A DNA stretch of 64,000 nt from a virus, in IMG/VR virus record IMGVR_UViG_3300035665_000004, positions 32,001 to 96,000 of that record; one strand, written 5' to 3'. Of the stretch, positions 1 to 45,810 are shown piece by piece. The notes under the pieces are model-generated. The model was not told the origin of the DNA and did not search any database. It was given only the letters and a program-made list of their open reading frames with translations. Each line of letters starts with the position of its first letter. The first letter of the stretch is position 1. A program made the position numbers and the translations under genes.

Positions 1-212
1 ATAGCATCCAACCCAGTAGCACTATAATTTAAATTTTCACTAAAAACCTTCCATCCACCGGATTCATGTCCACATTGGGCGATAAATGACGCTATTCGGT
101 TTGGTGTATTGATGTCATACTTAGGTAAAACCTCATTTAATGCCTCTACTAATGAATTTGAGGCAGTACCACATGATGGAAACAGTTGATTAAATTGTTG
201 TGTTGTTATCAT
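1..212 (-). CDS. GH19 (chitinase-like) endolysin, N-terminal part; runs off the window start
   Basis: Not in the ORF track. Manual translation from ATG at 212 (RBS GAGGAG) gives MITTQQFNQLFPSC...INTPNRIASFIAQCGHESGGWKVFSENLNYS, the GH19 AQxxHES...ENLNY signature. Confidence 0.85.
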   Translation of the reverse strand, partial: MITTQQFNQLFPSCGTASNSLVEALNEVLPKYDINTPNRIASFIAQCGHESGGWKVFSENLNYSATGLDA

Positions 213-972
213 TATTAACTCCTCTATTGTTACCTTTAATTAAATTATGTTGTTTCTTTACTTCTTTTATATGATGTATCTGTAATGTTATTTTGTTTAC
301 ATAATTAATGAGAATTTTAAAATTTTCATCAAAGGTTTTGTCTTTTATTGCATTTTTCAGTTCCTTTATTTCTCGTGATAAATTAAATAAAGGTGATGAT
401 ATAGTATGCTGTAAGTGATTGATATAAAAAATCAAATTATCATTTCCGATGGTAAGTTTATTATTGTTTTCCTTTAGATTTTTTATAGTATCCATGTAAT
501 AAGGAATTTTATACATAATAAAATCAACATAAATGACAAAAATAGTGACTACAATAAAAAAAATCATAAAAACAACAATAAAATCCTGTGAATCCAAGAC
601 AAAATATACTGGTTCATCATAATTTTCCATTGAAACCACAACATCAAAGGAAAAATCATCACGCATAGTTAAGATTGAATTACTGTAAACTGAATTCAAA
701 AAATGATGGTTGCTATTTTGATGTGAATTTATTTTTTTAGTATTTTTATCAAACTCGTAATATTTATTATTCTGGTATATACCCTTACAATTTAAAATTA
801 TACATAATTCCGATACATTCAACTTTTTATAAATTGTTCGTTCATAAATTAATTTATTATACATTTTATCATAATGATTAAACAAAAATTTAGAATATAC
901 CGTAGATGAACAGGTAGCAACAATCAAAAAAATACCAACCGCAGCCAACAATCGCATTTTAAACACCTGCAT
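190..972 (-). CDS. Membrane protein with sensor-like topology and a C-terminal DHp/HisKA-like helix; no ATPase domain
   Basis: Two hydrophobic segments flank a ~100-aa loop, followed by an H-box-like HLQHTISSPLFNL. ATG at 972 follows GGAGG. The 3' end overlaps the endolysin start by 23 nt. Confidence 0.6.
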   Translation of the reverse strand: MQVFKMRLLAAVGIFLIVATCSSTVYSKFLFNHYDKMYNKLIYERTIYKKLNVSELCIILNCKGIYQNNKYYEFDKNTKKINSHQNSNHHFLNSVYSNSILTMRDDFSFDVVVSMENYDEPVYFVLDSQDFIVVFMIFFIVVTIFVIYVDFIMYKIPYYMDTIKNLKENNNKLTIGNDNLIFYINHLQHTISSPLFNLSREIKELKNAIKDKTFDENFKILINYVNKITLQIHHIKEVKKQHNLIKGNNRGVNNDNNTTI

Positions 973-1012
973 TATTACCTCCAACAGTTTTAACTGTATA
1001 GTGTAAATAAAC

Positions 1013-1057: not shown

Positions 1058-1291
1058 TTATATTGCAAGAATTAACGCTGCATCATCTTTTCGTAAACTA
1101 ATAGTATAACCACGAATTTTAATTTCTATTGGATCACCCATTGGGGCATATCTAATTATTTCAAATTCAATTCCTCTTGTAATCCCCATTGCTAATAATC
1201 TTTTTCTATAGGTCTTATTGATCATTGGACAAAAACCAACAATCAATCCAGTAGTTCCAGGTAAAAACGTTGATAATGTTTTTTTTGTCAT
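1058..1291 (-). CDS. feoA: Ferrous iron transport protein A
   Basis: RKRLLAMGITRG...IRYAPMGDPIEIKIRGYTISLRK is the FeoA consensus; 77 aa. Confidence 0.92.
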   Translation of the reverse strand: MTKKTLSTFLPGTTGLIVGFCPMINKTYRKRLLAMGITRGIEFEIIRYAPMGDPIEIKIRGYTISLRKDDAALILAI

Positions 1292-1919: not shown

Positions 1920-2501
1920 TTAAGTGAAGGTTTGATATGACGTTAAAACCTTAGAAACATAGTTAATGGTTTCGGGATATGGTGGTATCTTTCTATTATG
2001 TCGAATTACAGCATTTTCACCTGCATTGTAACCAGCTAATGCAAGTTTTTTATCATTGTTGAATATTTCCAACAGATGTTTAATATATTTTGTACCACCT
2101 TCAATACTTTGTACTGGATCAGTTCTATCAATAACTCCAAATCTTTCCGCAGTTACCGGCATAAGTTGCATTACTCCTACCGCACCTTTACTACTAATGG
2201 CGTATGTCTTGAACGAACTCTCAGTTTTAATAACGGCTTTCACTAACTTTGGATCGACACCATGTCGTTTAGCAGATTTTTGTGCTAAATACATAATCAT
2301 TTCTTGAGTATAAACAACAGTAAGTTTTTTCTTTACTGGTTTTAATGGTGCTACAACTGTTGTTACTTGAGGTTTTAACACTACCGCATGTGACTCATTA
2401 CTAAAGTATGCTCTCCCAGTATCATCATAATATCTGTAAATGTTTGCTTGTGTTGTTGTACTAACAAATAAACCAAATGATAAAATTATGGATTTTTTCA
2501 T
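1920..2501 (-). CDS. Soluble lytic transglycosylase (SLT domain) with signal peptide
   Basis: AVIKTESSF, GAVGVMQLMP, LALAGYNAG and YPETINYV motifs. ATG at 2501 overlaps the upstream stop (ATGA). Confidence 0.9.
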   Translation of the reverse strand: MKKSIILSFGLFVSTTTQANIYRYYDDTGRAYFSNESHAVVLKPQVTTVVAPLKPVKKKLTVVYTQEMIMYLAQKSAKRHGVDPKLVKAVIKTESSFKTYAISSKGAVGVMQLMPVTAERFGVIDRTDPVQSIEGGTKYIKHLLEIFNNDKKLALAGYNAGENAVIRHNRKIPPYPETINYVSKVLTSYQTFT

Positions 2502-2821
2502 TTTTGCATTCCACACGTAGAATTAAATTTAATAATTGCCGCATATTCAGTATTTGTTACATTAGTCAAAATATTAACAAATAATCCACTTGCACTATAC
2601 CACAGTGGTAAAAAAATAACTAAAATACAAACTACAACCCCAACCTGTATATGTTCTGGTAATTCTTTACCTAATATTTGTCGCCATCTATTCCAATAAA
2701 ATACAGTTAATCCTGTTACTAGACAGAGAATAAGAATCAACGTAACATCAGGGATAACTTCAATTAAAACCTGATTTTTCAATAAATCTACTGGCATGTT
2801 ACAAATGTTTTTAGTTGACAT
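2498..2821 (-). CDS. Two-TM membrane protein, translationally coupled to the transglycosylase
   Basis: Two hydrophobic stretches; stop overlaps the SLT ATG. Confidence 0.6.
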   Translation of the reverse strand: MSTKNICNMPVDLLKNQVLIEVIPDVTLILILCLVTGLTVFYWNRWRQILGKELPEHIQVGVVVCILVIFLPLWYSASGLFVNILTNVTNTEYAAIIKFNSTCGMQK

Positions 2822-16319: not shown

Positions 16320-16772
16320 TTAATACATTATGTTATGTTGAATTTTATGAATATCGATAATACTTTTTACTTTCCAATCAAACGAGGATAATTCCTTCTC
16401 TTTAGACTCTAATGATTTAATTGTAACATTAATTTTGTCTAATAATTTTTTATTATCAACATATTCGGGAAATTTTTTTATTTCTCTTTCATAGTCTTTA
16501 TGGGTTTTTAACAATTCGGGGAATCCATCATATTCACTTGCAACATTATGGATTTCAATGGCATACCAATTATCAAATGCTATTTCTAAATCAGCATGTG
16601 ATAATCGAAGTTTAAATATAATTTTCGTTAATTTGGCGTGGTGATAATTAGCTAGAGCAATTTTTTCTTGTATTTCCTCTAGTTTGACTTTTGGATCGAG
16701 TGAAAAATCTAAAATTTCTGTCAACTCGTATATTTGACTATCCGTTAAGATTTCTTTAAGAAAGGTTAGCAT
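16320..16772 (-). CDS. UvsY-like recombination mediator (tentative)
   Basis: All-helical 150-aa protein ending DWKVKSIIDIHK, reminiscent of the UvsY C-terminus. Confidence 0.45.
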   Translation of the reverse strand: MLTFLKEILTDSQIYELTEILDFSLDPKVKLEEIQEKIALANYHHAKLTKIIFKLRLSHADLEIAFDNWYAIEIHNVASEYDGFPELLKTHKDYEREIKKFPEYVDNKKLLDKINVTIKSLESKEKELSSFDWKVKSIIDIHKIQHNIMY

Positions 16773-31662: not shown

Positions 31663-32859
31663 ATGAAAACTCCCGATAAAATAAATACGGATCGGTATGA
31701 AGTAAACAAACCATCAGAACTGTGTCAAGTAATATTCATCAAGAATTTTAAAAATGATTTTGAAATTTACAAAATTAGTCCTATGCAATTGGATCTAATA
31801 AATGGTATAATTTATAAGGTTCGGGAAATCATAATTAAGGAAAATTTAAACATCGATGATGAAATTCCATCTACATTATTCGACATAAAACTAAATGATT
31901 TTGCAAATATGTTTTCCGCTTATACTAATAACGACTATAAGGTTTTACTTGAAAAACTTATAGAATTGTCAGAAATGAAAATTATTATAAATGCCCTAGG
32001 TAAAAATAAAGATATTGATGAAACAATCATGACTAGGTTTATTCATGAGATACGACTATCAAAACATAAACATCAAAAAAACCAAAGAATTAGAGTTGCG
32101 ATTTCTAATATTATAATTAACAGGTTTATTAACGTAAAAAAATATTTTTCCAAAATGTTTTTTACAATCCAATTTTCGATGGTATCAAAATACTCAAAGT
32201 TATTATATGAATTATTGAAAGATTATGAAAATATTAAAAAAATAGAATTGACTGTAAATTCATTGCATGATTTACTAAATGTTGTTGAACCAAACCAACG
32301 CAAATGGACATTATTTAATCAAAATATTTTGAAAAAAGCTGTCAATGAAATCAATGAAAAAGCAGATATTAAAGTTTTTTACGAACCTATTAAAGAAAGA
32401 CCATCATCAACTGAAAGATTGCAGGTAACAAAAGTTAAATTTGTTATCGAGAAACAAACGGAGTCAAGACTACAATCACTAGGGTTAATTCATGAATCGA
32501 TAAAATCCAATAAGTTCTATAATAAGTCGAAAAATAAATTAGACAAATTATTGAAAACTGGGTACAAACTAATCGATGAAGAAAAATGGATTGAAACCGA
32601 CATCAAAAACAATGCTGTCCGATATGATGCTGAAATAAGAATTGATAACTGGTTGAAAAATACACCACAAGATGATAAAAATAACATATATGCAATGCTT
32701 GCAAAAACACTTGATGATTGTGACGAACAATTTATTTATATTGATGGATATTTAATTAGAGGAGTTTTTTCGAATGATTCATATACTAGAAACCCAATGG
32801 AAACTATTTCTGTAATGAATGAGTTGATCAACCAAATTTCTTCAAACTCAACCAATTAA
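31663..32859 (+). CDS. Plasmid-type replication initiator (Rep_3 / RepB family)
   Basis: SKYSKLLYELLKDY, LHDLLNV and NILKKAVNEINEKADIKVFYE winged-helix motifs; GAGG RBS; TGTATAAT at 31624. Confidence 0.88.
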   Translation: MKTPDKINTDRYEVNKPSELCQVIFIKNFKNDFEIYKISPMQLDLINGIIYKVREIIIKENLNIDDEIPSTLFDIKLNDFANMFSAYTNNDYKVLLEKLIELSEMKIIINALGKNKDIDETIMTRFIHEIRLSKHKHQKNQRIRVAISNIIINRFINVKKYFSKMFFTIQFSMVSKYSKLLYELLKDYENIKKIELTVNSLHDLLNVVEPNQRKWTLFNQNILKKAVNEINEKADIKVFYEPIKERPSSTERLQVTKVKFVIEKQTESRLQSLGLIHESIKSNKFYNKSKNKLDKLLKTGYKLIDEEKWIETDIKNNAVRYDAEIRIDNWLKNTPQDDKNNIYAMLAKTLDDCDEQFIYIDGYLIRGVFSNDSYTRNPMETISVMNELINQISSNSTN

Positions 32860-37765: not shown

Positions 37766-38809
37766 TTATTTTTTTGCCGGATTTTTAATCGGTTCAATAA
37801 TTTCTTTAGCATACCAACCTATTTGAAATTCTGTAGAATTTCTTTCTAATTGTTTAAGAGTGTTTTCACTACAATTCACAAAAATTGGGCAACCGTTATT
37901 TTTGTATGATTCAGTTAATTTACGTCTTGAGAGTTTATGTTTTTTGCAGAAATCATCAAAATTTCCATATGACGTACCAAACAAAGTACCATCCACACGG
38001 TAAACTGAAATCTTTTTAGAATTAGGGGAAACGTAAAAATCATAAGCATCAAACTCACGTTTGGTCACTACCTTATTTTTTCCATCTCTAATATCCAAAA
38101 CAGTTACTCTATCCTCAGATACATGTTTAAAAAATTCATTTTGTTCATATTCCATCTTAGAAACTAACTTGTATTTTTCAGCAATAACATCAAAAACTAA
38201 AACACACCCCTTATTTTGTCGAACATAATAATCGAATTCGTAAAATTCTTTAGTTGTTACCTGAACTGTGGTTCCATTTCTAATATCAATAACAGAAACT
38301 TTTCCAGTAGCCGCAGTAATATATTGATCCGACGAATTATATTCATTAACACTTATACTTTTGATAACGTTGTCTTTGGTATCAAAAACAGTAACGAACC
38401 CTTTTGTACAATGTTGGTAAAAATCAGTATTTTTTAATTCCTCTTTCACCACCAACTTTGTTAACCCAGTTCTCACATCAATAACTGGAACTAATCCTAC
38501 AGTAGTGAAACCATTACTAATTGATTTAACTTTGTTATAATATTCGGTGTTTCTTGAAACATCATACAATTCGTGTAATCTTATTTCTTCATTGAGTGCA
38601 TATTCTCTTGTTTCCCAAACTGATAATATTTCTTTTTTAAAATTTTCAATTCCACCAAATTTAATTGCATTCTTTAAAGGTGTAGAAGACCCCATATATT
38701 TCACATCTTTTTCTGGAGAAACTTTTGATGTTCTAACACCTATATAATATTTTTGGTTATCGATAGGGACAGTATTAATTATTTTGTAAACATAATGATA
38801 TTGTTTCAA
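37766..38809 (-). CDS. Free-standing GIY-YIG homing endonuclease (Seg-like)
   Basis: YVYKIIN...YYIGVR, YMGSS and EEIRL..YN motifs, then about six VxD(x)4-5VxxxE(F/Y) repeats. Confidence 0.85.
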   Translation of the reverse strand: MKQYHYVYKIINTVPIDNQKYYIGVRTSKVSPEKDVKYMGSSTPLKNAIKFGGIENFKKEILSVWETREYALNEEIRLHELYDVSRNTEYYNKVKSISNGFTTVGLVPVIDVRTGLTKLVVKEELKNTDFYQHCTKGFVTVFDTKDNVIKSISVNEYNSSDQYITAATGKVSVIDIRNGTTVQVTTKEFYEFDYYVRQNKGCVLVFDVIAEKYKLVSKMEYEQNEFFKHVSEDRVTVLDIRDGKNKVVTKREFDAYDFYVSPNSKKISVYRVDGTLFGTSYGNFDDFCKKHKLSRRKLTESYKNNGCPIFVNCSENTLKQLERNSTEFQIGWYAKEIIEPIKNPAKK

Positions 38810-38899
38810 ATTTTCTCCCTGTGCTAAAAATTATTAATTTCCTAACCATTATACAAACTATTGTATAATATAATATATTCTTATTAATTGGTAAAAAAT

Positions 38900-39019
38900 A
38901 TGTTGAAAAAAGTTAAAGTTAAATCGGTTAAAAAAATTGATTATTCTGGTAAAGTATATGATGTAGTTATGAAAAGTAACCCACATACATTTTTTGCAAA
39001 TAATATTTTGGTACATAAT
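38900..39019 (+). mobile_element. Split intein, C-half (40 aa)
   Basis: Blocks F/G end in His-Asn before Ser+1 (39020-39022); 8 Lys versus 2 Asp. Confidence 0.9.
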
Positions 39020-40045
39020 TCCTGTTATTTCAGAGTAATGGAGGCAGAAAACTTAGAACAGGCAGAAAAAATAAGTAGAGAGGTAGTTGACGCCTGTGAT
39101 AAAAAATCTATCCCATCAATAGTTACCAATATTTTTAATGGTAATGACATTATGCGTAGTGATTTTGAAGCAATTTCTCGATCAACACTGTCGTATGGTA
39201 AGAAAAAACAATACGCATTTCTTAAAGCCTGGGAGGATGGAGAAACCTTACCAACTCCAAAATTAAGCATCACTGGTTTATCAATTAAAAGAAGTGATTC
39301 ACCAAAACAGTTATCTACTGAAATGAAACCATTCTTTACCGAAATTATGAAAGGTTTAACAAAAGAACAGATAAAAATCGCAATGGATAAAATTGAAAAA
39401 GATTATGATGCTCTACCAACATATGAATTGGCAGCTAAACGTTCAGCGAATAACTTATCAAAATATTTAAGGGCATTTAACTATGAATTAGTTAAAAAGG
39501 ATAGACCATACAACATCGAAAAATTAGATGAGGCAGTTGAAAACGCTTGTGATGGGCGAGTATCCATCGATGATAAAATTTATGATGATTTCATGAGAAC
39601 AGGCAAAGGTGTTTATTCCATCGAAAATAATAAATTGGTTAAAGATATAAAAGGTGATTTAATCATAGAGGCAAAAGTTAAAATGGTTATTCCATTTCAT
39701 ATCAAAGCATCGATACTTTATAATTATTTGTTAGAATTATACGATTTAAATGATTTCAATCCAATTTTAGATGGTGAAAAAATAAAATTATTTTATATTC
39801 AACCACAAAAATTTAATATAAAATACACGGATCTAGATGGAAACAAATATGATATGATACAAACTTTTGATTGTATTGCGTTCCCATCAAACTCAAAAAA
39901 AATACCAAATTTTATCAATACATTTACACCAGACAAAAAAAGAATGTTGGATACTTATTTCTTTGGTAAAATGGAAACAATTTTTGATGTTATCGATTTT
40001 AATAAAGAAAAATTAGAAAATATATCAATGGATTTATTGTTTTGA
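38900..40045 (+). CDS. C-terminal half of the split intein fused to the family-B DNA polymerase C-terminal fragment (palm/thumb)
   Basis: A 40-aa IntC ending VYDV...FFANNILVHN is followed by SCYF; PolB motifs KKKQYA, ITGLSIKRSD and HIKASILYN follow. Confidence 0.9.
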   Translation: MLKKVKVKSVKKIDYSGKVYDVVMKSNPHTFFANNILVHNSCYFRVMEAENLEQAEKISREVVDACDKKSIPSIVTNIFNGNDIMRSDFEAISRSTLSYGKKKQYAFLKAWEDGETLPTPKLSITGLSIKRSDSPKQLSTEMKPFFTEIMKGLTKEQIKIAMDKIEKDYDALPTYELAAKRSANNLSKYLRAFNYELVKKDRPYNIEKLDEAVENACDGRVSIDDKIYDDFMRTGKGVYSIENNKLVKDIKGDLIIEAKVKMVIPFHIKASILYNYLLELYDLNDFNPILDGEKIKLFYIQPQKFNIKYTDLDGNKYDMIQTFDCIAFPSNSKKIPNFINTFTPDKKRMLDTYFFGKMETIFDVIDFNKEKLENISMDLLF

Positions 40046-40115: not shown

Positions 40116-40123
40116 CATAAATA
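40116..40123 (+). promoter_or_regulatory. Putative late promoter (CATAAATA) before the hybrid kinase
   Basis: About 32 nt upstream of ATG 40155. Confidence 0.4.
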
Positions 40124-40154: not shown

Positions 40155-42647
40155 ATGCCCACTAATATAAAAATTGATACCCTGACTATTGATATTTTGA
40201 ATCATCTCAATATAATTGTGACCGACGCTAATAATAATATAACCTTTATTAGTGACAACTATTTAAATGCGTTGGAATATACTATCGATGAGGTTATTGG
40301 AAAAAATCCTATAATTTTTAGACATCCAACAATTAATAATCTACCAATATTAAATTTTGTAAATAAAAATGGTGGACATTGGAACGGATTATTAAAAAAT
40401 ATTACAAAAAGTGGAAAAACTATATATTTCAATGCCGATATTTACAAAGATTATGATGAAAATGGTAATCATATTGGGTATCATTCAATACATACTGACA
40501 TAACTACAACTATAACAAACCCCCATAAATTTATTTTTGATAATGAACTTTTATCAATTATATTTTCAGAAAATATAGAATACCTAATCATCTGTTTGAG
40601 TGACGAGTTCGATGAAAATAAACACGAAATTATCAAGATTAGTCACCCATTACTAGAATTGATAGGTATTGAAGCCGATAAATTAGTTGAGCAACACGCA
40701 AGTTTTGTAGATTTAATATCACCAAAGTCAATTTATTACAAAAATTTAAAACTGTTAATGCATGATCTTAACAATGAAAACCCATTACCGGTTGATATAA
40801 AAACGAAAAATAGGGATGCAAAATACAGAGTTTCATACACCCCTTTCAAATTCAATGATAAAGCAGCTCAATTATTTACGATGATTGACATAACCACCGA
40901 AATATCTTTTTCCGATCAACTCCAAAGTATAATAAAATCAAAAAATGAATTTTTGGCAAATTTAGCCCACGAAATTAAAACTCCATTGAATGCAATTAAT
41001 GGTTTTATTTCACTACTACAAATGCGTGAAACAAATAAAGAAAAACTAGACTATATTGAATTAGTGTTGGAAAGTGTTAAACATGTAATAAACATTTCCA
41101 ACGATACCATCGATTTTATTGGTATGGATAATAGTAAAATAGAGATAAATCCTAGAGAATTTACACCAAAAGATATTCAGTCAACCATAGAAATATTTTT
41201 TGCAAAGAGTTTAGAAAAAAACATTGAATTGACTGCATATATTTCACCACAATTACCAGAAATAATGTTTCAAGATATTTTGCGATTAAAACAAATCATA
41301 ACCAATCTTATCAGTAATGCATTAAAATTCGTTAATGTTGATGGTAGAGGAACTATAGTGATAGAATGTCATTTCAACAATGACAAATTTTATTTTACTA
41401 TTGTCGATAATGGAATTGGAATGTCCACAGAACAAATAGAAAATATATTTAATCCTTTTTATCAGGCATCAAAAGATACAAAAATGGTTTATGGTGGTAC
41501 AGGGTTAGGATTGGCTGTTGTTAATCAAATAATTGAACTTATGGGTGGTAGTATTACTGTAGAAAGTGAACTCGGTGTAGGTTCAACATTTTCAGTTATT
41601 ATACCAGTAAAATCAGTTAAAGAGTTTCAACATACAATTGGTCGAATGGATATACCAAACATTTACATTTATGCCCCATCATTTTCCAATACAAAACATG
41701 AAATTTTAAAGAAATATCTGTTCGATTTTACAACCGCAAAGATCAATAAAGTTGCAGAAATTGATACATTGAATTCAATAACGGATAGTGTGATACTACT
41801 TTATGTATGTGATACAGATATAAAAACTATACTCCAATTAAGTAAAACAAATAGAATTATTGTAGTTAAAAAAATGGACATGGTTATCAACAATTTTACA
41901 AATTCGTCCGAAATAATAGAAATAAATTTACCCATTTTAGGATCAAAAATATATGATGCACTAAATTTACTAATATCCGGTAGAATGGAACAATTCTATA
42001 AAAATAACTTCTTAGATATGACAATATCTGGTAGAATATTGGTGGCAGATGATCAAGAATCGAATAGACTACTAATAAATCGATTATTATCATGTTATGA
42101 TGTAACGATTGATGTAGTATGTGATGGTAGAGAGGCAGTTAATTATTTTAAAAAGAGTATAATAGAAAACAAATCGTATTACGACTTAATATTGCTTGAC
42201 GTCAACATGCCAATATTAAACGGCGTTGATGCCGCGAGAGAAATAAGACTTTTCGAAAAAATGAATAATATTACTAGAACTACAATAATATCATTAACAG
42301 CGGATAGATATACGGACAAAAATGATAGTAGATTGGTAGATATGGATGAATATATACCCAAACCTATTAATTTAAAACGGATGTTATATCTAATTGTGAA
42401 ATACACAACTGATCTAAAATTGGTTGATGAAAACTTGTTATACGATGAAAAAATTAAAAAATTGAAAGAGATACGTGACGAATTTTTAAAACCAAATAAT
42501 GAATTTAAAACAATGATAGACAATTATAAAAAACATTTTGATGGTTCGGAATTACCAATTATTGAAGGTTTAAAAGATTTAACTAATAAAAATGAATTCA
42601 CTGCAAACTATAATAAAATTATGAAAATTTTTAGGAAGCACGGATGA
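40155..42647 (+). CDS. Cytoplasmic PAS-domain hybrid histidine kinase / response regulator
   Basis: PAS (IGKN..RHP, W.G..KN), H box AHEIKTPLNAI, N box NLISNALKF, DNGIG, F box, GGTGLGL, and receiver ADD...LLDVNMP...LTA...KP. Confidence 0.95.
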   Translation: MPTNIKIDTLTIDILNHLNIIVTDANNNITFISDNYLNALEYTIDEVIGKNPIIFRHPTINNLPILNFVNKNGGHWNGLLKNITKSGKTIYFNADIYKDYDENGNHIGYHSIHTDITTTITNPHKFIFDNELLSIIFSENIEYLIICLSDEFDENKHEIIKISHPLLELIGIEADKLVEQHASFVDLISPKSIYYKNLKLLMHDLNNENPLPVDIKTKNRDAKYRVSYTPFKFNDKAAQLFTMIDITTEISFSDQLQSIIKSKNEFLANLAHEIKTPLNAINGFISLLQMRETNKEKLDYIELVLESVKHVINISNDTIDFIGMDNSKIEINPREFTPKDIQSTIEIFFAKSLEKNIELTAYISPQLPEIMFQDILRLKQIITNLISNALKFVNVDGRGTIVIECHFNNDKFYFTIVDNGIGMSTEQIENIFNPFYQASKDTKMVYGGTGLGLAVVNQIIELMGGSITVESELGVGSTFSVIIPVKSVKEFQHTIGRMDIPNIYIYAPSFSNTKHEILKKYLFDFTTAKINKVAEIDTLNSITDSVILLYVCDTDIKTILQLSKTNRIIVVKKMDMVINNFTNSSEIIEINLPILGSKIYDALNLLISGRMEQFYKNNFLDMTISGRILVADDQESNRLLINRLLSCYDVTIDVVCDGREAVNYFKKSIIENKSYYDLILLDVNMPILNGVDAAREIRLFEKMNNITRTTIISLTADRYTDKNDSRLVDMDEYIPKPINLKRMLYLIVKYTTDLKLVDENLLYDEKIKKLKEIRDEFLKPNNEFKTMIDNYKKHFDGSELPIIEGLKDLTNKNEFTANYNKIMKIFRKHG

Positions 42648-42651
42648 CGAA

Positions 42652-42659
42652 TATAAATA
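42652..42659 (+). promoter_or_regulatory. T4-type late promoter (TATAAATA)
   Basis: Exact consensus ~20 nt upstream of the holin-like gene. Confidence 0.55.
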
Positions 42660-42679
42660 TCATAAAAAGGGGGTTATAG

Positions 42680-43069
42680 ATGCATATTTTGCTTGATTTA
42701 GATGTTTCACTATATATACTATTATTTTTTATCGCAGGTACGATAGGATTAGTAGTGCGTATAGATCAATGGGTCGAAGGAGATTTTTCACATCCAATCA
42801 AAGAAAACGGTACATTAGATATCCTCAGATCGTTTTGGTCGTATGTATTAACATTCTTATTATCGGGATTATCGGGAGCAATTGTATCGATAGGGACAGG
42901 TTATATTTTAGAAAATAAGGATACAAACATAATGATCTTCACTGCTGTAATGATTGGTGCAATTGGAAAACTCATTTTTTATAAACTTGTGGAATGGGTA
43001 CATTTTAAAGTTGATGATGTGTTGACACCTAAAAAAAATAATAACCAAGCACATAGAAGAGGGAAATGA
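42680..43069 (+). CDS. Three-TM holin-like membrane protein
   Basis: 129 aa with three hydrophobic Gly-rich segments and a basic C-tail (class I holin architecture). Confidence 0.55.
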   Translation: MHILLDLDVSLYILLFFIAGTIGLVVRIDQWVEGDFSHPIKENGTLDILRSFWSYVLTFLLSGLSGAIVSIGTGYILENKDTNIMIFTAVMIGAIGKLIFYKLVEWVHFKVDDVLTPKKNNNQAHRRGK

Positions 43070-43467
43070 TTATGGTTAACGATTTAATTGATTCTGTTGA
43101 TTTAAATACTTCTGATGAGTGGAACCAAAAAAAAAGTGTTAACCTTATTCGCCACACAGAAACTATCGATAAACTTGTTGTCCAAAATAAAACATTACAA
43201 AGAGAATTGCGTGAACTTTCAATACACGCGGAACAATTACAAAATAAATTATATGACAGCAATGTTAGAATTTCTAAAAATTTATTTTATATTGGATTAT
43301 TTGCACTCGCTTATTTTGTTTACAGTGTAAATAGCAACCTAATAATGTTAAACGATAAGTTAATTGAGATAAATGTTGTAGTTGCACAATACAAAGATAT
43401 AACTGAAAAAAATAAGTTATACAATCAAATTATGACAGAACAAAATGGTATTAATAAAACCAAATAA
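43066..43467 (+). CDS. Coiled-coil protein with one TM segment (possible antiholin or lysis accessory)
   Basis: ATGA overlap with the holin-like gene; coiled coil followed by LFYIGLFALAYFVYSV. Confidence 0.5.
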   Translation: MIMVNDLIDSVDLNTSDEWNQKKSVNLIRHTETIDKLVVQNKTLQRELRELSIHAEQLQNKLYDSNVRISKNLFYIGLFALAYFVYSVNSNLIMLNDKLIEINVVVAQYKDITEKNKLYNQIMTEQNGINKTK

Positions 43468-43491
43468 TAATAGGGGAAAAGGGAGATAAAA

Positions 43492-44109
43492 ATGCTTAGT
43501 AATTTATTTGGTAAAAAAATTCGTAAAGTGGATTATCACAACACTAATAAATCTGAAACACACAACTTCACAAATATGCAGGATCAAATCACATGGTTGA
43601 CAGATAATGGTTGGGTAAATGGAAATACTTTCAATAAAAGTAACAAAAATATCCTGATAATGGATGACAGACAAGATATAATTTCCGCAGTCATTGATGA
43701 TTTAGAAAGAATGGACGAAACTGAAATAATAAATCTAAATCATTTTAACCTGATAACTGTTTCATCAAAAAATGCAGGTTTTCACGTATTGGATATTTTA
43801 GAAAAAGCACCAAATATAACCATAGATTATGCACTATTAGATATTGTATTAGGTGGAAAAAAAATAGTAGATGGTGTAAAACAAATGGTAGATGGTGTTG
43901 ATGTTGCAATACAAATATGGGAACGGTTTTCAACAGCACAGATACTTTTTTTTAGTGGTTGTATCATTGAAAATTCTAACGACCGTGATGATTTTAAAAA
44001 CAGATTTACTAGTTATACACAAGAAGATATATCGGATTATTTGTTGCCAAAGGACATTGATTTTGATTCCGAAATCGATCAACTAGCAACATTTTTCAAC
44101 GGTTTTTAA
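43492..44109 (+). CDS. Stand-alone receiver-domain response regulator
   Basis: ILIMDD, LLDIVL (phospho-Asp), FFSG and PK motifs; no output domain. Confidence 0.8.
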   Translation: MLSNLFGKKIRKVDYHNTNKSETHNFTNMQDQITWLTDNGWVNGNTFNKSNKNILIMDDRQDIISAVIDDLERMDETEIINLNHFNLITVSSKNAGFHVLDILEKAPNITIDYALLDIVLGGKKIVDGVKQMVDGVDVAIQIWERFSTAQILFFSGCIIENSNDRDDFKNRFTSYTQEDISDYLLPKDIDFDSEIDQLATFFNGF

Positions 44110-44117
44110 AATTATTT

Positions 44118-45401
44118 ATGGCTATCGATTTTAAAAATATAGCTATTAGTAGTTTAACAATAACTGGGGTAACATTTGCGTCTGTGCTTTGCATAACAAT
44201 TACTGTAAATTTATATACCACATTTACAATATCAAATGAATTCGAACCATCAATAAATTTATTAGCTAGAAATTATATCAATTCAAAAAACTCACCAACA
44301 TTATTGACGGATAATTTTACCGATTCTCAAATAAATGTAGTTATATTTGATGAAGAAAAAAACAAAATATTTAAACTTAATAATAATTCTTTAATTGACA
44401 TTAGTGATTCATCACCATTTCCAAAATTAATTAGTGTACCATTTGATGTTTATATTTCTTCTATGACAACGTTTGAAATGTCCACACTTGCAACTATGTA
44501 TAATGTAGACAATTTAAAAATAAAACTAGATATATATGATAAGAAGCATATAGCCGCCGATACATTTATAATGTTACTAATAACTAACAGTCTTATTTCT
44601 CATATTTTATATTTTAAATTAGTTGCTAGAAATAAACTGATATTGAAATCACTGATTAAAGTTGAACAATACGAATACGCTCTTTCACAAAGAACAACAG
44701 CAGATTTGGTAAGTATAACACATCATAAATTGAATACGCCCCTAAAGGTTTTAAATACAAAATCCAGAATGTTGATTGATATAATAAAATCACAGGATAA
44801 CATTTCACAAAAAACATTAGATAAGGCTTTGTTGGATTATCATAGTATTGAATCTTCATTAACCACAATTTCTGAGGTTACTGATACATTAAAATCATTT
44901 AATGATTTGAGTAAACATGAATTGAATTTATATAAATTGTTTAACGTTGCGAAAGAAACTACCAATGTATTGAATGATGATGAATTTGAAATTATATTAG
45001 ATGAAAAAACTAAATTGTTCAATATTGATAAATCATATATAAATTCACATGAAATGATTCAAATTTTTATAAATCAAATAAATTTTTCATTGTCAATGTT
45101 AGCAGATAAAATTCATATAAAAGTATTTAATACCTCAAATAATGTTATGATATTATTATATTCTGATAATGGGAATATAATTACCGATGATATGATCGAT
45201 GATCTAAATACCAATAATGAAATATTTGTAAATGCAGATACCAACCATAAAAAAAATACACATTATGATTTAACTTTAAACTTTATTATTTTAAATTCGA
45301 AAGATTTTTCAAATATAAAAATTCTCTCATCTAATAGAAATGGAAACATATTTGAGATTAAACTACCTGTTGTTCGAGCAGATGAAACAAAAAAATTTTA
45401 A
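44118..45401 (+). CDS. Membrane histidine-kinase-like protein with a degenerate ATPase domain
   Basis: Two TM segments, H box HHKLNTPL, altered N box QIFINQINF, DNG, and no recognisable GxGLG G2 box. Confidence 0.7.
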   Translation: MAIDFKNIAISSLTITGVTFASVLCITITVNLYTTFTISNEFEPSINLLARNYINSKNSPTLLTDNFTDSQINVVIFDEEKNKIFKLNNNSLIDISDSSPFPKLISVPFDVYISSMTTFEMSTLATMYNVDNLKIKLDIYDKKHIAADTFIMLLITNSLISHILYFKLVARNKLILKSLIKVEQYEYALSQRTTADLVSITHHKLNTPLKVLNTKSRMLIDIIKSQDNISQKTLDKALLDYHSIESSLTTISEVTDTLKSFNDLSKHELNLYKLFNVAKETTNVLNDDEFEIILDEKTKLFNIDKSYINSHEMIQIFINQINFSLSMLADKIHIKVFNTSNNVMILLYSDNGNIITDDMIDDLNTNNEIFVNADTNHKKNTHYDLTLNFIILNSKDFSNIKILSSNRNGNIFEIKLPVVRADETKKF

Positions 45402-45402
45402 A

Positions 45403-45747
45403 TCATTGGTTTTTTAAACTATCCATAAGATCATCAAACATAGGTCTTATTTCATGTAATGGTGTGCCTTTTCGAAGTTCTAACTCCATATCTTGACAAA
45501 GATCACTTTCATAATAAAAATCACCATACAATAGTAGATTTTTTACTGAGTGTAACTTAGTAGAAACAGCCGATATATTGTTAATATCATCATTGAATAA
45601 CATAGTATTGATTTCCAACAAAGTCTCTTCAATATTGTCTACCATTAAAGTTGCTTTTATACTAACCTCATCACCATTTAGAGTTTCACATAAAAAATCA
45701 TATATAGCATCGTAAAATTTAATTCTATCAATTGATGAGTTCATCAT
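45403..45747 (-). CDS. Hpt (histidine phosphotransfer) domain protein
   Basis: Helical ~114 aa with KLHSVKNLL and LCQDMELEL, matching the Hpt HxxKG-type pattern. Confidence 0.7.
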   Translation of the reverse strand: MMNSSIDRIKFYDAIYDFLCETLNGDEVSIKATLMVDNIEETLLEINTMLFNDDINNISAVSTKLHSVKNLLLYGDFYYESDLCQDMELELRKGTPLHEIRPMFDDLMDSLKNQ

Positions 45748-45810
45748 AGTTTCCCCCAAAATACCACTTATATCTAAAAATTTAACACCAATATTAAAAC
45801 TTCAAAAAAA

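Follow-up and report, generated by a model that had tools for sequence, protein, structure and literature searches.

A jumbo phage gene cassette that probably encodes the virus's own conserved His-Asp phosphorelay

The cassette described here belongs to a T4-like jumbo phage from lake water (freshwater), which has no deposited relatives. The window, that is, the whole stretch of 64,000 nucleotides that was analysed, corresponds to positions 32,001 to 96,000 of IMG/VR record IMGVR_UViG_3300035665_000004, and the cassette occupies its positions 40155-45759. Six proteins, A to F, are encoded, and every ORF was found where the first-pass annotation had placed it. The features are as follows.

1920-2821: candidate lysis pair, a 107-aa multi-TM ORF overlapping a signal-bearing SLT transglycosylase, 38 kb from B
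40116..40123, plus strand: CATAAATA, late-promoter-like motif, 31 nt upstream of A
40155..42647, plus strand: A, cytoplasmic hybrid histidine kinase (Pfam, NCBIfam, PDB match, invariant catalytic residues)
42652..42659, plus strand: TATAAATA, exact T4 late-promoter consensus, 20 nt upstream of B
42680..43069, plus strand: B, 129-aa membrane protein with three hydrophobic segments and a basic C-terminal tail (hydropathy)
43066..43467, plus strand: C, 133-aa coiled-coil/TM protein, its ATG overlapping the TGA of B (ATGA)
43492..44109, plus strand: D, 205-aa single-domain divergent receiver, recognisable by fold only
44118..45401, plus strand: E, 427-aa two-TM membrane kinase homologue (AF2, Foldseek, VIA, motif mapping)
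45403..45747, minus strand: F, Hpt protein of ~114 aa, likely start ATG 45747, ORF extending to TTG 45759

Phage genes flank the cassette on both sides and the cassette is conserved in relatives. All five divergent metagenomic relatives (31-68% identity) share the gene order PolB-C, A, B, C, D, E, and each of these has an orthologue of F on the opposite strand, within ~2 kb or one to two genes away. A convergent Hpt gene had been noted earlier; its identity and its strand hold, but it directly adjoins E in the source phage only, two other genes lying between E and F in the relatives. The best conserved protein of the module is B, with a mean identity of 65% against 44-52% for the others, and the phospho-acceptor residues of A, D, E and F are all invariant across 31-50% divergence. 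A gene for a CCA-adding enzyme lies near the cassette, and in relatives an NMNAT-like gene is also nearby. In some relatives, genes for flagellin, FlaG and a canonical CheY-like receiver lie near the cassette; the source contig lacks those for flagellin and the CheY-like receiver. No description of a phage phosphorelay was found in the literature.

Protein A is the intact PAS-kinase-receiver hybrid that had been proposed. It matches PAS_9/PAS, HisKA, HATPase_c and Response_reg of Pfam, all above the cut-off, and has no TM segment. The order of its domains is PAS (20-117), a second PAS-like region (~125-245), HisKA (H272), HATPase_c, an insert of ~140 aa (485-624) that is possibly a pseudo-receiver, a receiver (D682) and a conserved helical tail. 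The kinase boxes are invariant in six orthologues (H272; N box N384/N388; G1 D418-x-G420-x-G422; F box F432/F435; G2 G447-G448-x-G450-L-G452), as are the receiver residues D633, D682, T715 and K736-P737. The reading of the first PAS as an Aer-type redox sensor was not upheld, since its RHP motif varies among orthologues. The best genomic relatives of A are found in Campylobacterota (31-33%), and its best PDB match is ShkA (6qrj, 1.9e-40), with equal domain spacing.

F is transcribed with unrelated genes, in a transcription unit separate from that of A to E, and its ATG at 45747 is preceded by the RBS GGGGGA. The phospho-His is H70 (118-aa numbering), in the motif H-x-x-K-N-x4-G. F matched the Hpt of PDB 3myf (1.2e-4 as a single sequence, 2.1e-5 as a profile) and CheA P1 (0.049, with HTLKG aligned). 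Pfam Hpt was matched by 6 of 15 members of the family, the best at 5.5e-5; F itself falls under the threshold, and its H+4 residue is Asn instead of the usual Gly.

In Caulobacter, the hybrid kinase ShkA signals through a separate Hpt in the ShkA-ShpA-TacA phosphorelay (PDB 6QRJ; PMC6969517). The DHp-CA region and the C-terminal receiver of ShkA align with those of A, the insert between them is equal in length (~140 aa), and both hybrid kinases have a separate small Hpt protein as partner, presumably F in the case of A. ShkA lacks the N-terminal PAS domains of A, however, and the terminal acceptor of the Caulobacter system is a transcription factor, whereas the phage-encoded cassette has the receiver-only protein D. 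NCBIfam BarA appears split in two, A covering its positions 291-793 (2.8e-69) and F its positions 832-908 (9e-4); this is a likeness of architecture to the BarA/GacS-type unorthodox kinases, not orthology (234 against an equivalog cut-off of 890 bits). Unlike in those kinases, the phage Hpt is encoded separately, by a gene on the opposite strand, and the cassette has no GacA-like DNA-binding regulator. Searches of Pfam and NCBIfam detected no DNA-binding domain in any component, in agreement with the earlier claim that the relay has no such output.

Protein D had been called a stand-alone receiver, and this is borne out by its fold; no receiver HMM matched it. Its candidate phospho-acceptor is D117, accompanied by an acidic pair (D58/D59), S155 and K187; where receivers have the hallmark Lys-Pro, D has Pro-Lys-Asp. 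Residues 122-133 form an additional beta-hairpin, and the N-terminus is extended by a stretch in which Trp residues are conserved. In every phage examined D adjoins E, which consists of TM1, a beta-rich periplasmic domain (~60-140), TM2, a DHp domain (H203, T207) and a CA domain. The top Foldseek and VIA matches of E were histidine kinases throughout, and its motifs were mapped by hhalign to A and by a profile built from canonical phage kinases (28.7 bits). Compared with a canonical autokinase, E has Lys for Glu at H+1 and lacks both the G2 box and the second glycine of G1; N319 and D350-N-G-N are present in the CA domain, and His203 and the phosphatase Thr207 are retained. AF2, Foldseek and motif mapping thus agree with its description as a membrane kinase-like protein with a degenerate ATPase, and since the invariant N-box Asn and G1 Asp are kept, E may have retained ATP binding and kinase activity. 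Domain searches, folds and conserved residues together confirm that a hybrid kinase, an Hpt, a stand-alone receiver and a membrane pseudokinase are all present on phage DNA.

Jumbo phages are known to encode divergent receiver-fold proteins that act with NAD+/RNA-repair genes, and the cRec type is defined as never co-occurring with histidine kinases (Iyer et al. 2021, PMC7824862). D could by analogy be a cRec-type phosphoesterase and the kinase-like genes decaying host-derived cargo without relay function, in line with the escape of D from receiver HMMs and with the CCA-adding and NMNAT-like genes mentioned above. A kinase gene follows D in 10 of 10 loci, however, which does not suit a cRec protein, and decay does not fit the invariant phospho-acceptor residues; this explanation is considered highly improbable.

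Four more distant IMG/VR phages, one of them with terminal repeats (205 kb), retain an older core: a C-like protein, followed by a D-like receiver and a canonical kinase that is Pfam-positive and whose H-E, N, G1 and G2 motifs are all intact. Outside this core, three of the four records yielded no canonical receiver. The C-like proteins resemble C in architecture only, BLAST giving no sequence similarity, and B was not found in the distant loci examined. As the kinase of this trio is fully canonical, D and E form a genuine pair of receiver and kinase, in which E is a degenerate derivative lacking the three autokinase features. A and F probably became the phosphodonor branch.

As had been described, hydropathy gave three TM segments for B, for which we infer an N-out/C-in topology, and C is translationally coupled to it through the ATGA overlap. 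The 42 homologues of B (62-74% identity, long invariant blocks including cytoplasmic motifs) are confined to this phage clade. C has a conserved helical/coiled-coil N-terminal part (TETID..L..QN..LQ), a single moderately hydrophobic segment at ~72-95 and a conserved C-terminal amphipathic stretch. The T4-type late motif reported before B was confirmed; it shows positional enrichment and partial conservation. TATAAATA occurs 7 times in the window against 18+/-4 expected, and 6 of its 17 copies in the contig lie ≤60 nt upstream of a same-strand start, compared with 10% for all A5T3 octamers (rank 1/56). The NATAAATA core precedes B in four of six genomes and the NATAAATA motif precedes A in all six; the motif noted before the hybrid kinase is the related CATAAATA, which would act as the promoter of A. 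B to E are probably transcribed late from the T4-type late promoter.

These features had led to the idea that the relay sets lysis timing, with B (and C) as a holin/antiholin-type pair triggered according to phospho-D. B is small like phage holins, with class-I-like topology, a basic C-terminus, probable late expression and a coupled second membrane protein, and the relay has no transcriptional output. The atlas scores of B were all <0.9; two of them, 0.85 and 0.81, point to clusters partly carrying Phage_holin_3 families and, being sub-threshold, serve as no more than a lead. About 1 kb away from the SLT cassette there is a tentative paralogue consisting of DHp alone (190-984), and T4 lysis inhibition by holin T and antiholin RI is conceptually similar in that a periplasm-sensing input could delay lysis. 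The topology of B is generic, however; it matched no family in Pfam, PHROGs or NCBIfam, those of holins included, and Phage_holin_T had no match on the contig. B is unusually conserved, down to its invariant cytoplasmic motifs, and does not lie beside a lysis enzyme: no endolysin or spanin was found in the cassette of the source phage or its five relatives, the conventional candidate lysis pair is distant, and in the distant phage loci examined the ancestral trio occurs without B. Control of lysis timing is a possible but speculative role, and we consider it unlikely.

The preferred reading is that of a phage-owned, branched His-Asp phosphorelay with non-transcriptional output, to which we assign a probability of roughly 0.55, the wiring being deduced as a whole from domain logic. 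A would autophosphorylate on H272 and pass the phosphoryl group to its own D682, from where F (H70) would carry it to D117 of D. E would descend from the ancestral cognate membrane kinase of D; as the three autokinase features are gone while His203 and Thr207 are kept, its most likely role is to drain or gate D~P as a phosphatase or phosphotransfer partner under the control of an envelope signal. Relays of the Spo0F/Spo0B and ChpT type use receiver-only shuttles and kinase-derived phosphotransferases that do not bind ATP. E differs from Spo0B and ChpT in being membrane-anchored with a periplasmic domain and in keeping the Asn of the N box and the Asp of G1; homology to either protein was not detected, and there was no evidence of E heterodimerising with A as in a GacS-RetS-type network. 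C, and B in this clade, may be membrane partners of the E sensor or targets of D~P. Small membrane proteins are likewise co-transcribed with a receiver-kinase pair in the LiaF-LiaS, YycH/YycI-WalK and BceAB-BceS systems, the Foldseek matches of E include WalK-YycH and BceAB-S complexes, and a C-like protein accompanies the pair in the distant phages; neither B nor C is related by sequence or by family to LiaF, YycH/YycI or BceAB.

Hpt proteins often serve several receivers. A and a promiscuous F might therefore feed or drain a host phosphorelay (e.g. motility or global regulation), with D and E as a buffer or sink. The kinase-receiver core of A is closest to cellular BarA/ShkA-type kinases, with its Campylobacterota relatives, F stands in a different transcription unit from A to E, and the flagellin, FlaG and CheY-like genes lie close to the cassette in some relatives. 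No host partner was identified, however, the flagellin and CheY-like genes are missing from the source contig, and the strict conservation of D beside E argues for an internal phage target, so that such hijacking appears doubtful.

In the branched relay, phosphorylation of D would combine a cytoplasmic signal (via A) with a periplasmic one (via E), and would act on a target in the phage or the host by way of protein-protein contacts. The cassette is probably the phage's own conserved His-Asp phosphorelay and, since the phage carries such a relay, the virus probably senses signals during infection.

All six open reading frames that the first-pass annotation had proposed at window 40155-45759 were recovered where it placed them. 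They encode a hybrid histidine kinase (A), a protein with three transmembrane (TM) segments (B), a coiled-coil/TM protein (C), a stand-alone receiver (D), a membrane kinase homologue with a degenerate ATP site (E) and an Hpt protein (F). The contig that carries the window, at its bases 32001-96000, is viral (IMG/VR), 121,946 bp long and ~48% complete (CheckV). The objection that this could be a host-chromosome contig end fails, since the cassette lies mid-contig amid phage genes: the C-terminal half of PolB (38888-40045) is found on one side and a CCA-adding enzyme on the other, past which lie conserved structural and tail-fibre-like genes. The polymerase feature is as follows.

Window 37766-40045 region: family-B DNA polymerase, C-terminal half, beginning with the C-terminal remnant of an intein (weak Pfam Intein_splicing match)

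A divergently encoded GIY-YIG homing endonuclease adjoins this fragment (window 37766-40045), and the corresponding polymerase fragment is found upstream of the cassette in all relatives. Synteny in other phages, which had been suggested as a check, was observed: five divergent metagenomic relatives (31-68% identity) keep the order PolB C-terminal half, A, B, C, D, E, and a trio of C-like, D-like and kinase-like proteins occurs in four distant IMG/VR phages. The latter were recovered from IMG/VR by alignment query only; single-protein scans of IMG/VR with D and with E gave no match. Near-identical copies are present in independent lake-water metagenomes of 2016, 2020 and 2024. In 50,697 deposited phage genomes, neither megablast nor tblastn detected anything related to the module, to D or to the conserved gene next to it, and A matched unrelated kinases only (≤33% identity). 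The best matches of A offer a weak lead to a Campylobacterota host; profiles of D and B had no match in 301 sampled Campylobacterota genomes, nor in five chosen genomes. Several of the alignments reported here involve AT-rich, low-complexity proteins with high compositional bias.

The description of A (40155-42647) as an intact PAS-kinase-receiver hybrid was confirmed, with PAS_9/PAS, HisKA, HATPase_c and Response_reg all scoring over the Pfam cut-off. The H-box is present (HisKA 54.3 bits, cut-off 26.9), and H272, within H-E-I-K-T-P-L, is invariant in 6 of 6 orthologues. The boxes of the ATP-binding domain (HATPase_c, 104.9 bits) are equally invariant in the six, namely N384/N388, D418-G420-G422 (G1), F432/F435 and G447-G448-G450-G452 (G2), as are residues D633, D682, T715 and K736-P737 of the receiver (Response_reg, 56 bits), including the phospho-Asp. 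In NCBIfam, A aligns to positions 291-793 of BarA. Its best solved relative is 6QRJ (1.9e-40), the Caulobacter kinase ShkA, in which an insert forms a pseudo-receiver and signalling proceeds via a separate Hpt protein, ShpA (PMC6969517). A resembles ShkA in that the DHp-CA and receiver parts align, while an insert of equal length (~140 aa) between them stays unaligned in both; the insert of A is a putative pseudo-receiver. The C-terminal tail of A (750-830) was considered as a degenerate Hpt and rejected, there being no conserved His in it.

The case for an Aer-type redox sensor in the first PAS of A did not hold. The 'RHP' motif reads RDK, RYP, KHY, SDN and RDH among the orthologues and the W-x-G-x-x-K-N stretch is usual for PAS domains, so that the argument fails. 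The hybrid kinase of one relative (L006:6452-8533, 693 aa) is without the entire second PAS-like region, equivalent to residues ~120-245 of the window's A, and this region is thus dispensable for core function.

The Hpt identity of F was upheld by several searches. The single sequence found the Hpt structure 3myf at 1.2e-4 and the BarA Hpt at 0.3, and in NCBIfam it aligned to BarA positions 832-908 (9e-4). With a 15-member family profile, the 3myf match improved to 2.1e-5, and CheA P1 was matched at 0.049 with H-T-L-K-N in exact register with H-T-L-K-G; the 3myf and BarA matches are likewise in register. Pfam Hpt (PF01627) gave no match for the window's own F and matched 6 of the 15 family members (best E 5.5e-5). 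H70 and K73 are invariant in the 15 sequences, with Asn at H+4 against the usual Gly; residues are numbered on the 118-aa ORF from TTG 45759, and the likely start is ATG 45747, downstream of a GGGGGA ribosome-binding site.

A convergent Hpt gene beside the cassette had been described. Its presence close by is conserved in all five relatives, but it abuts E in this phage only. In the relatives, the convergent gene directly after E encodes an unrelated protein, and the genes for the true F orthologues (40-53% identity) come one gene later, past a phage DnaJ. F is thus conserved near the module, yet as part of a minus-strand transcription unit. At L002:11313-12850 and the equivalent positions in L004, L005 and L007, E and the Hpt gene are separated by an unrelated gene of 115-132 aa (F') and by a complete DnaJ with DnaJ, DnaJ_C and Zn-finger domains; in L006, DnaJ is present and F' absent. 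F abuts E in this phage because F' and DnaJ are both missing.

That F serves to hijack the host would fit the flagellin, FlaG and CheY-like genes found near the cassette in some relatives. In L002, a flagellin (Flagellin_N and Flagellin_C, 267 aa), FlaG and a canonical stand-alone CheY-like receiver lie a few kb from the cassette (L002:13442-14930 and L002:16957-17346), and a CheY-like receiver is also encoded in a second relative (L007:15545-15916). None of these three kinds of gene is present on the contig of this phage, and host hijack via F is considered unlikely.

D passes the test for a (beta-alpha)5 flavodoxin-like fold and has the active-site quintet, with D58/D59 closing strand 52-58, D117 closing 113-117, S155 closing 150-155 and K187 following 184-186. 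Across 31 sequences, these residues show no or almost no variation, and the D-like proteins of the distant phages keep them as well. D gave no match to Pfam Response_reg (PF00072), no hhalign alignment with the receiver of A and no PDB match in single-sequence or profile searches; the assignment of D thus depends on its fold and on the conserved residues. It has Pro186-Lys187-Asp188 in place of the Lys-Pro cis-peptide that is a receiver hallmark (PMC9981736). The stand-alone receiver thus stood as to fold and active site but not as to Pfam recognition and the Lys-Pro hallmark, and D is a divergent receiver-fold protein rather than a canonical family member. The cyclic-phosphate-processing receiver of jumbo phages, cRec, occurs in linkage with NAD+/ADPr or RNA-ligase genes, never with histidine kinases (PMC7824862, Iyer et al. 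2021). D was tried as a cRec and rejected, since a kinase-fold gene follows it in 10 of 10 loci; that D is a cRec, or the cassette decaying cargo, is highly improbable.

E proved to be a membrane kinase-like protein with a degenerate ATPase, as proposed. A DHp hairpin and a Bergerat-fold CA domain are found (Foldseek 1e-9, every top match a kinase), and H-H-K-L-N-T-P-L is invariant, with a HisKA match that is weak but in register (E 0.02); a profile search of the PDB returned only SrrB (E 0.2). The autokinase motifs are not kept: the residue at H+1 is Lys throughout, G1 has the sequence D-N-G-N, and the segment opposite YGGTGLGL of A is YDLTLNF, the G2 box being lost. The N-box Asn (N319) and the G1 Asp (D350) are retained. 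Having kept the kinase fold without the autokinase motifs, E is a candidate kinase-fold pseudokinase or phosphatase.

The distant phages, one of which is 205 kb with terminal repeats, indicate where E came from. Their unit comprises a C-like protein (helical N-terminal part and one TM), a D-like receiver (30-35% identity) and a kinase recognised by Pfam (HATPase_c 50.6, 42.1 and 36.7 bits, plus HisKA). These kinases retain every motif: H-E at the H-box, the N box, D-N-G-x-G-I and R-G-x-G-L. The alignment of E to their profile runs end-to-end and scores 28.7 bits, to be read with caution given the high compositional bias. Since the distant kinases have all motifs and E can be aligned to them, E is, judged by its sequence, a derivative that lost the Glu at H+1, the second G1 glycine and the G2 box and kept His203 and the H+4 Thr. 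In established HisKA biochemistry, the H+4 Thr is a phosphatase determinant. A, B and F were not found within 10 kb of the trio, nor was a canonical receiver found anywhere in three of the four distant-phage records. We infer that an old phage receiver-kinase pair gained a hybrid kinase and an Hpt protein as a new phosphodonor, while its own kinase became a pseudokinase/phosphatase. In one distant phage, two canonical receiver-only genes directly follow the trio (L097:8174-8978; Response_reg 37.8 and 22.9 bits), a further relay variant without DNA-binding output. A weak HisKA match at contig position 16659 proved to lie in an AAA-type ATPase.

The best-supported reading of the cassette is a branched relay with post-translational output, to which a probability of about 0.55 is assigned. 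In the proposed wiring, the phosphoryl group would pass within A from H272 to D682, then to H70 of F and on to D117 of D. E would gate or drain D~P on a periplasmic cue, C (and B) would be membrane partners or targets, and the output would be post-translational.

The first-pass annotation had taken the relay to be expressed late and to set the timing of lysis through a holin-like B. As a T4-type late promoter, TATAAATA at ~10-50 nt upstream of a gene, without a -35 element, was sought, and an exact copy at 42652 was confirmed 20 nt before B. The motif is depleted overall, with 7 copies in the window against 18±4 expected. Of the 17 copies on the contig as a whole, six fall ≤60 nt upstream of a start on the same strand, a share of 35% against 10% for all same-composition octamers (rank 1 of 56), though the numbers are small and octamers containing TATAAT rank close behind. 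These sites, 20-47 nt upstream of gene starts, are the following.

Window 24681: TATAAATA upstream of a gene start
Window 42652: TATAAATA upstream of B
Window 57956: TATAAATA preceding the structural operon
Contig outside the window: three further upstream copies

The NATAAATA core is found ahead of A in all six genomes and ahead of B in four of them. The placement of TATAAATA would fit a late promoter of T4 type in this uncultured lineage, and late expression of the putative late-motif genes is plausible. A scan for sigma70 promoters and terminators performed no better than on shuffled sequence. The metatranscriptome X24 yielded just three exact 151-nt contigs, two within A and one at the start of F, which show neither expression nor timing because DNA carry-over is possible.

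B has 129 amino acids, with TM segments at 8-26, 56-77 and 86-104 and a net charge of +3 across the last 25 residues, and so has the form of a small membrane protein with a charged C-terminus looked for in a holin. Small size, a TM segment and a charged C-terminus are generic and common to many non-holins. C starts inside the stop codon of B, and neither protein matches any family in Pfam, PHROGs or NCBIfam, holin families included in the case of B; the atlas scores for B all fall below the tool's threshold of 0.9 and count as leads only. Phage_holin_T is absent from the contig, and no lysis enzyme is encoded in the cassette or in the five syntenic relatives. B is the best conserved protein of the module (65% mean identity, followed by D at 52%, A and F at 46%, and C and E at 44%), while neighbouring structural genes show 62-71%. 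It carries long invariant motifs in the predicted cytoplasmic loop and tail, and its homologues are confined to this phage clade. As soft evidence, this conservation favours an interaction under constraint over a generic hole-forming role. At the other end of the window, the following genes were found.

Window 190-984 (-): 264-aa ORF, candidate DHp-only paralogue
Window 1058-1291 (-): phage-encoded FeoA-domain protein (Pfam 1e-18)
Window 1920-2516 (-): SLT transglycosylase, 198 aa, with a hydrophobic N-terminal segment, signal or SAR-like (Pfam SLT 4e-29; classed in PHROGs as endolysin or lytic tail protein)
Window 2498-2821 (-): 107-aa multi-TM ORF overlapping the SLT start

SLT is the only muralytic gene found on the contig (~48% complete). 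A multi-TM ORF overlapping a muralytic gene is the usual holin-endolysin layout, and the pair at 1920-2821 is a candidate conventional lysis pair, 38 kb from B. FeoA is an iron-uptake accessory domain, unusual in phage. The 264-aa ORF, ~1 kb from the SLT pair, is laid out as TM, periplasmic domain, TM and an H-box-like H-T-I-S-S-P-L, without an ATPase domain. Its periplasmic motif L-C-x3-N-C-K-x-I is common to the sensor domains of the distant-phage kinases, and it aligns weakly but in register to the DHp of E (hhalign E 0.018) and at 12.8 bits to the distant-kinase profile.

The holin reading of B is not supported, given the lack of a holin family match and of a linked lysis enzyme and the separate candidate pair 38 kb away. 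Beyond the topology of B and the late motif, nothing positive points to a role in lysis timing, and a lysis switch, against which the conservation of B also speaks, is quite improbable. Very doubtful, too, is a decision circuit of a virulent jumbo phage, in which cytoplasmic signals (A) and envelope or superinfection signals (E, perhaps with the 190-984 paralogue) would set the phosphorylation of D, and D would act on B/C to advance or delay lysis. If true, this would be a phosphorylation-controlled holin/antiholin system, for which we know of no precedent.

Signalling by two-component systems and phosphorelays is seen as belonging to cells; known phage roles are interference with it or eavesdropping via single receptors. 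The parts of the cassette are ordinary two-component domains, and unannotated kinase families already exist in PHROGs. In the searchable literature, which leaves most subscription journals out of scope and is no proof of novelty, no description of phage- or virus-encoded histidine kinases or phosphorelays was found; a jumbo-phage survey mentions only cRec, which is unrelated (PMC7824862). Three aspects appear to be new: a multistep relay that is complete, conserved and owned by a phage, with a receiver and membrane partners specific to phages; the origin of this relay in an older phage receiver-kinase pair; and the transition from kinase to pseudokinase.

Read as a branched relay, the cassette would be a complete phage-owned system of two sensors, an Hpt protein and a dedicated receiver without transcriptional output, conserved across a clade of abundant lake phages and built on an older phage-specific receiver-kinase pair found in other jumbo phages. 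It adds three unannotated protein families (B, C and D) and would show, in a natural case, how a kinase becomes a pseudokinase as a second phosphodonor branch is recruited. If the proposed function is true, a lytic virus would measure its host inside and outside during infection and respond post-translationally.
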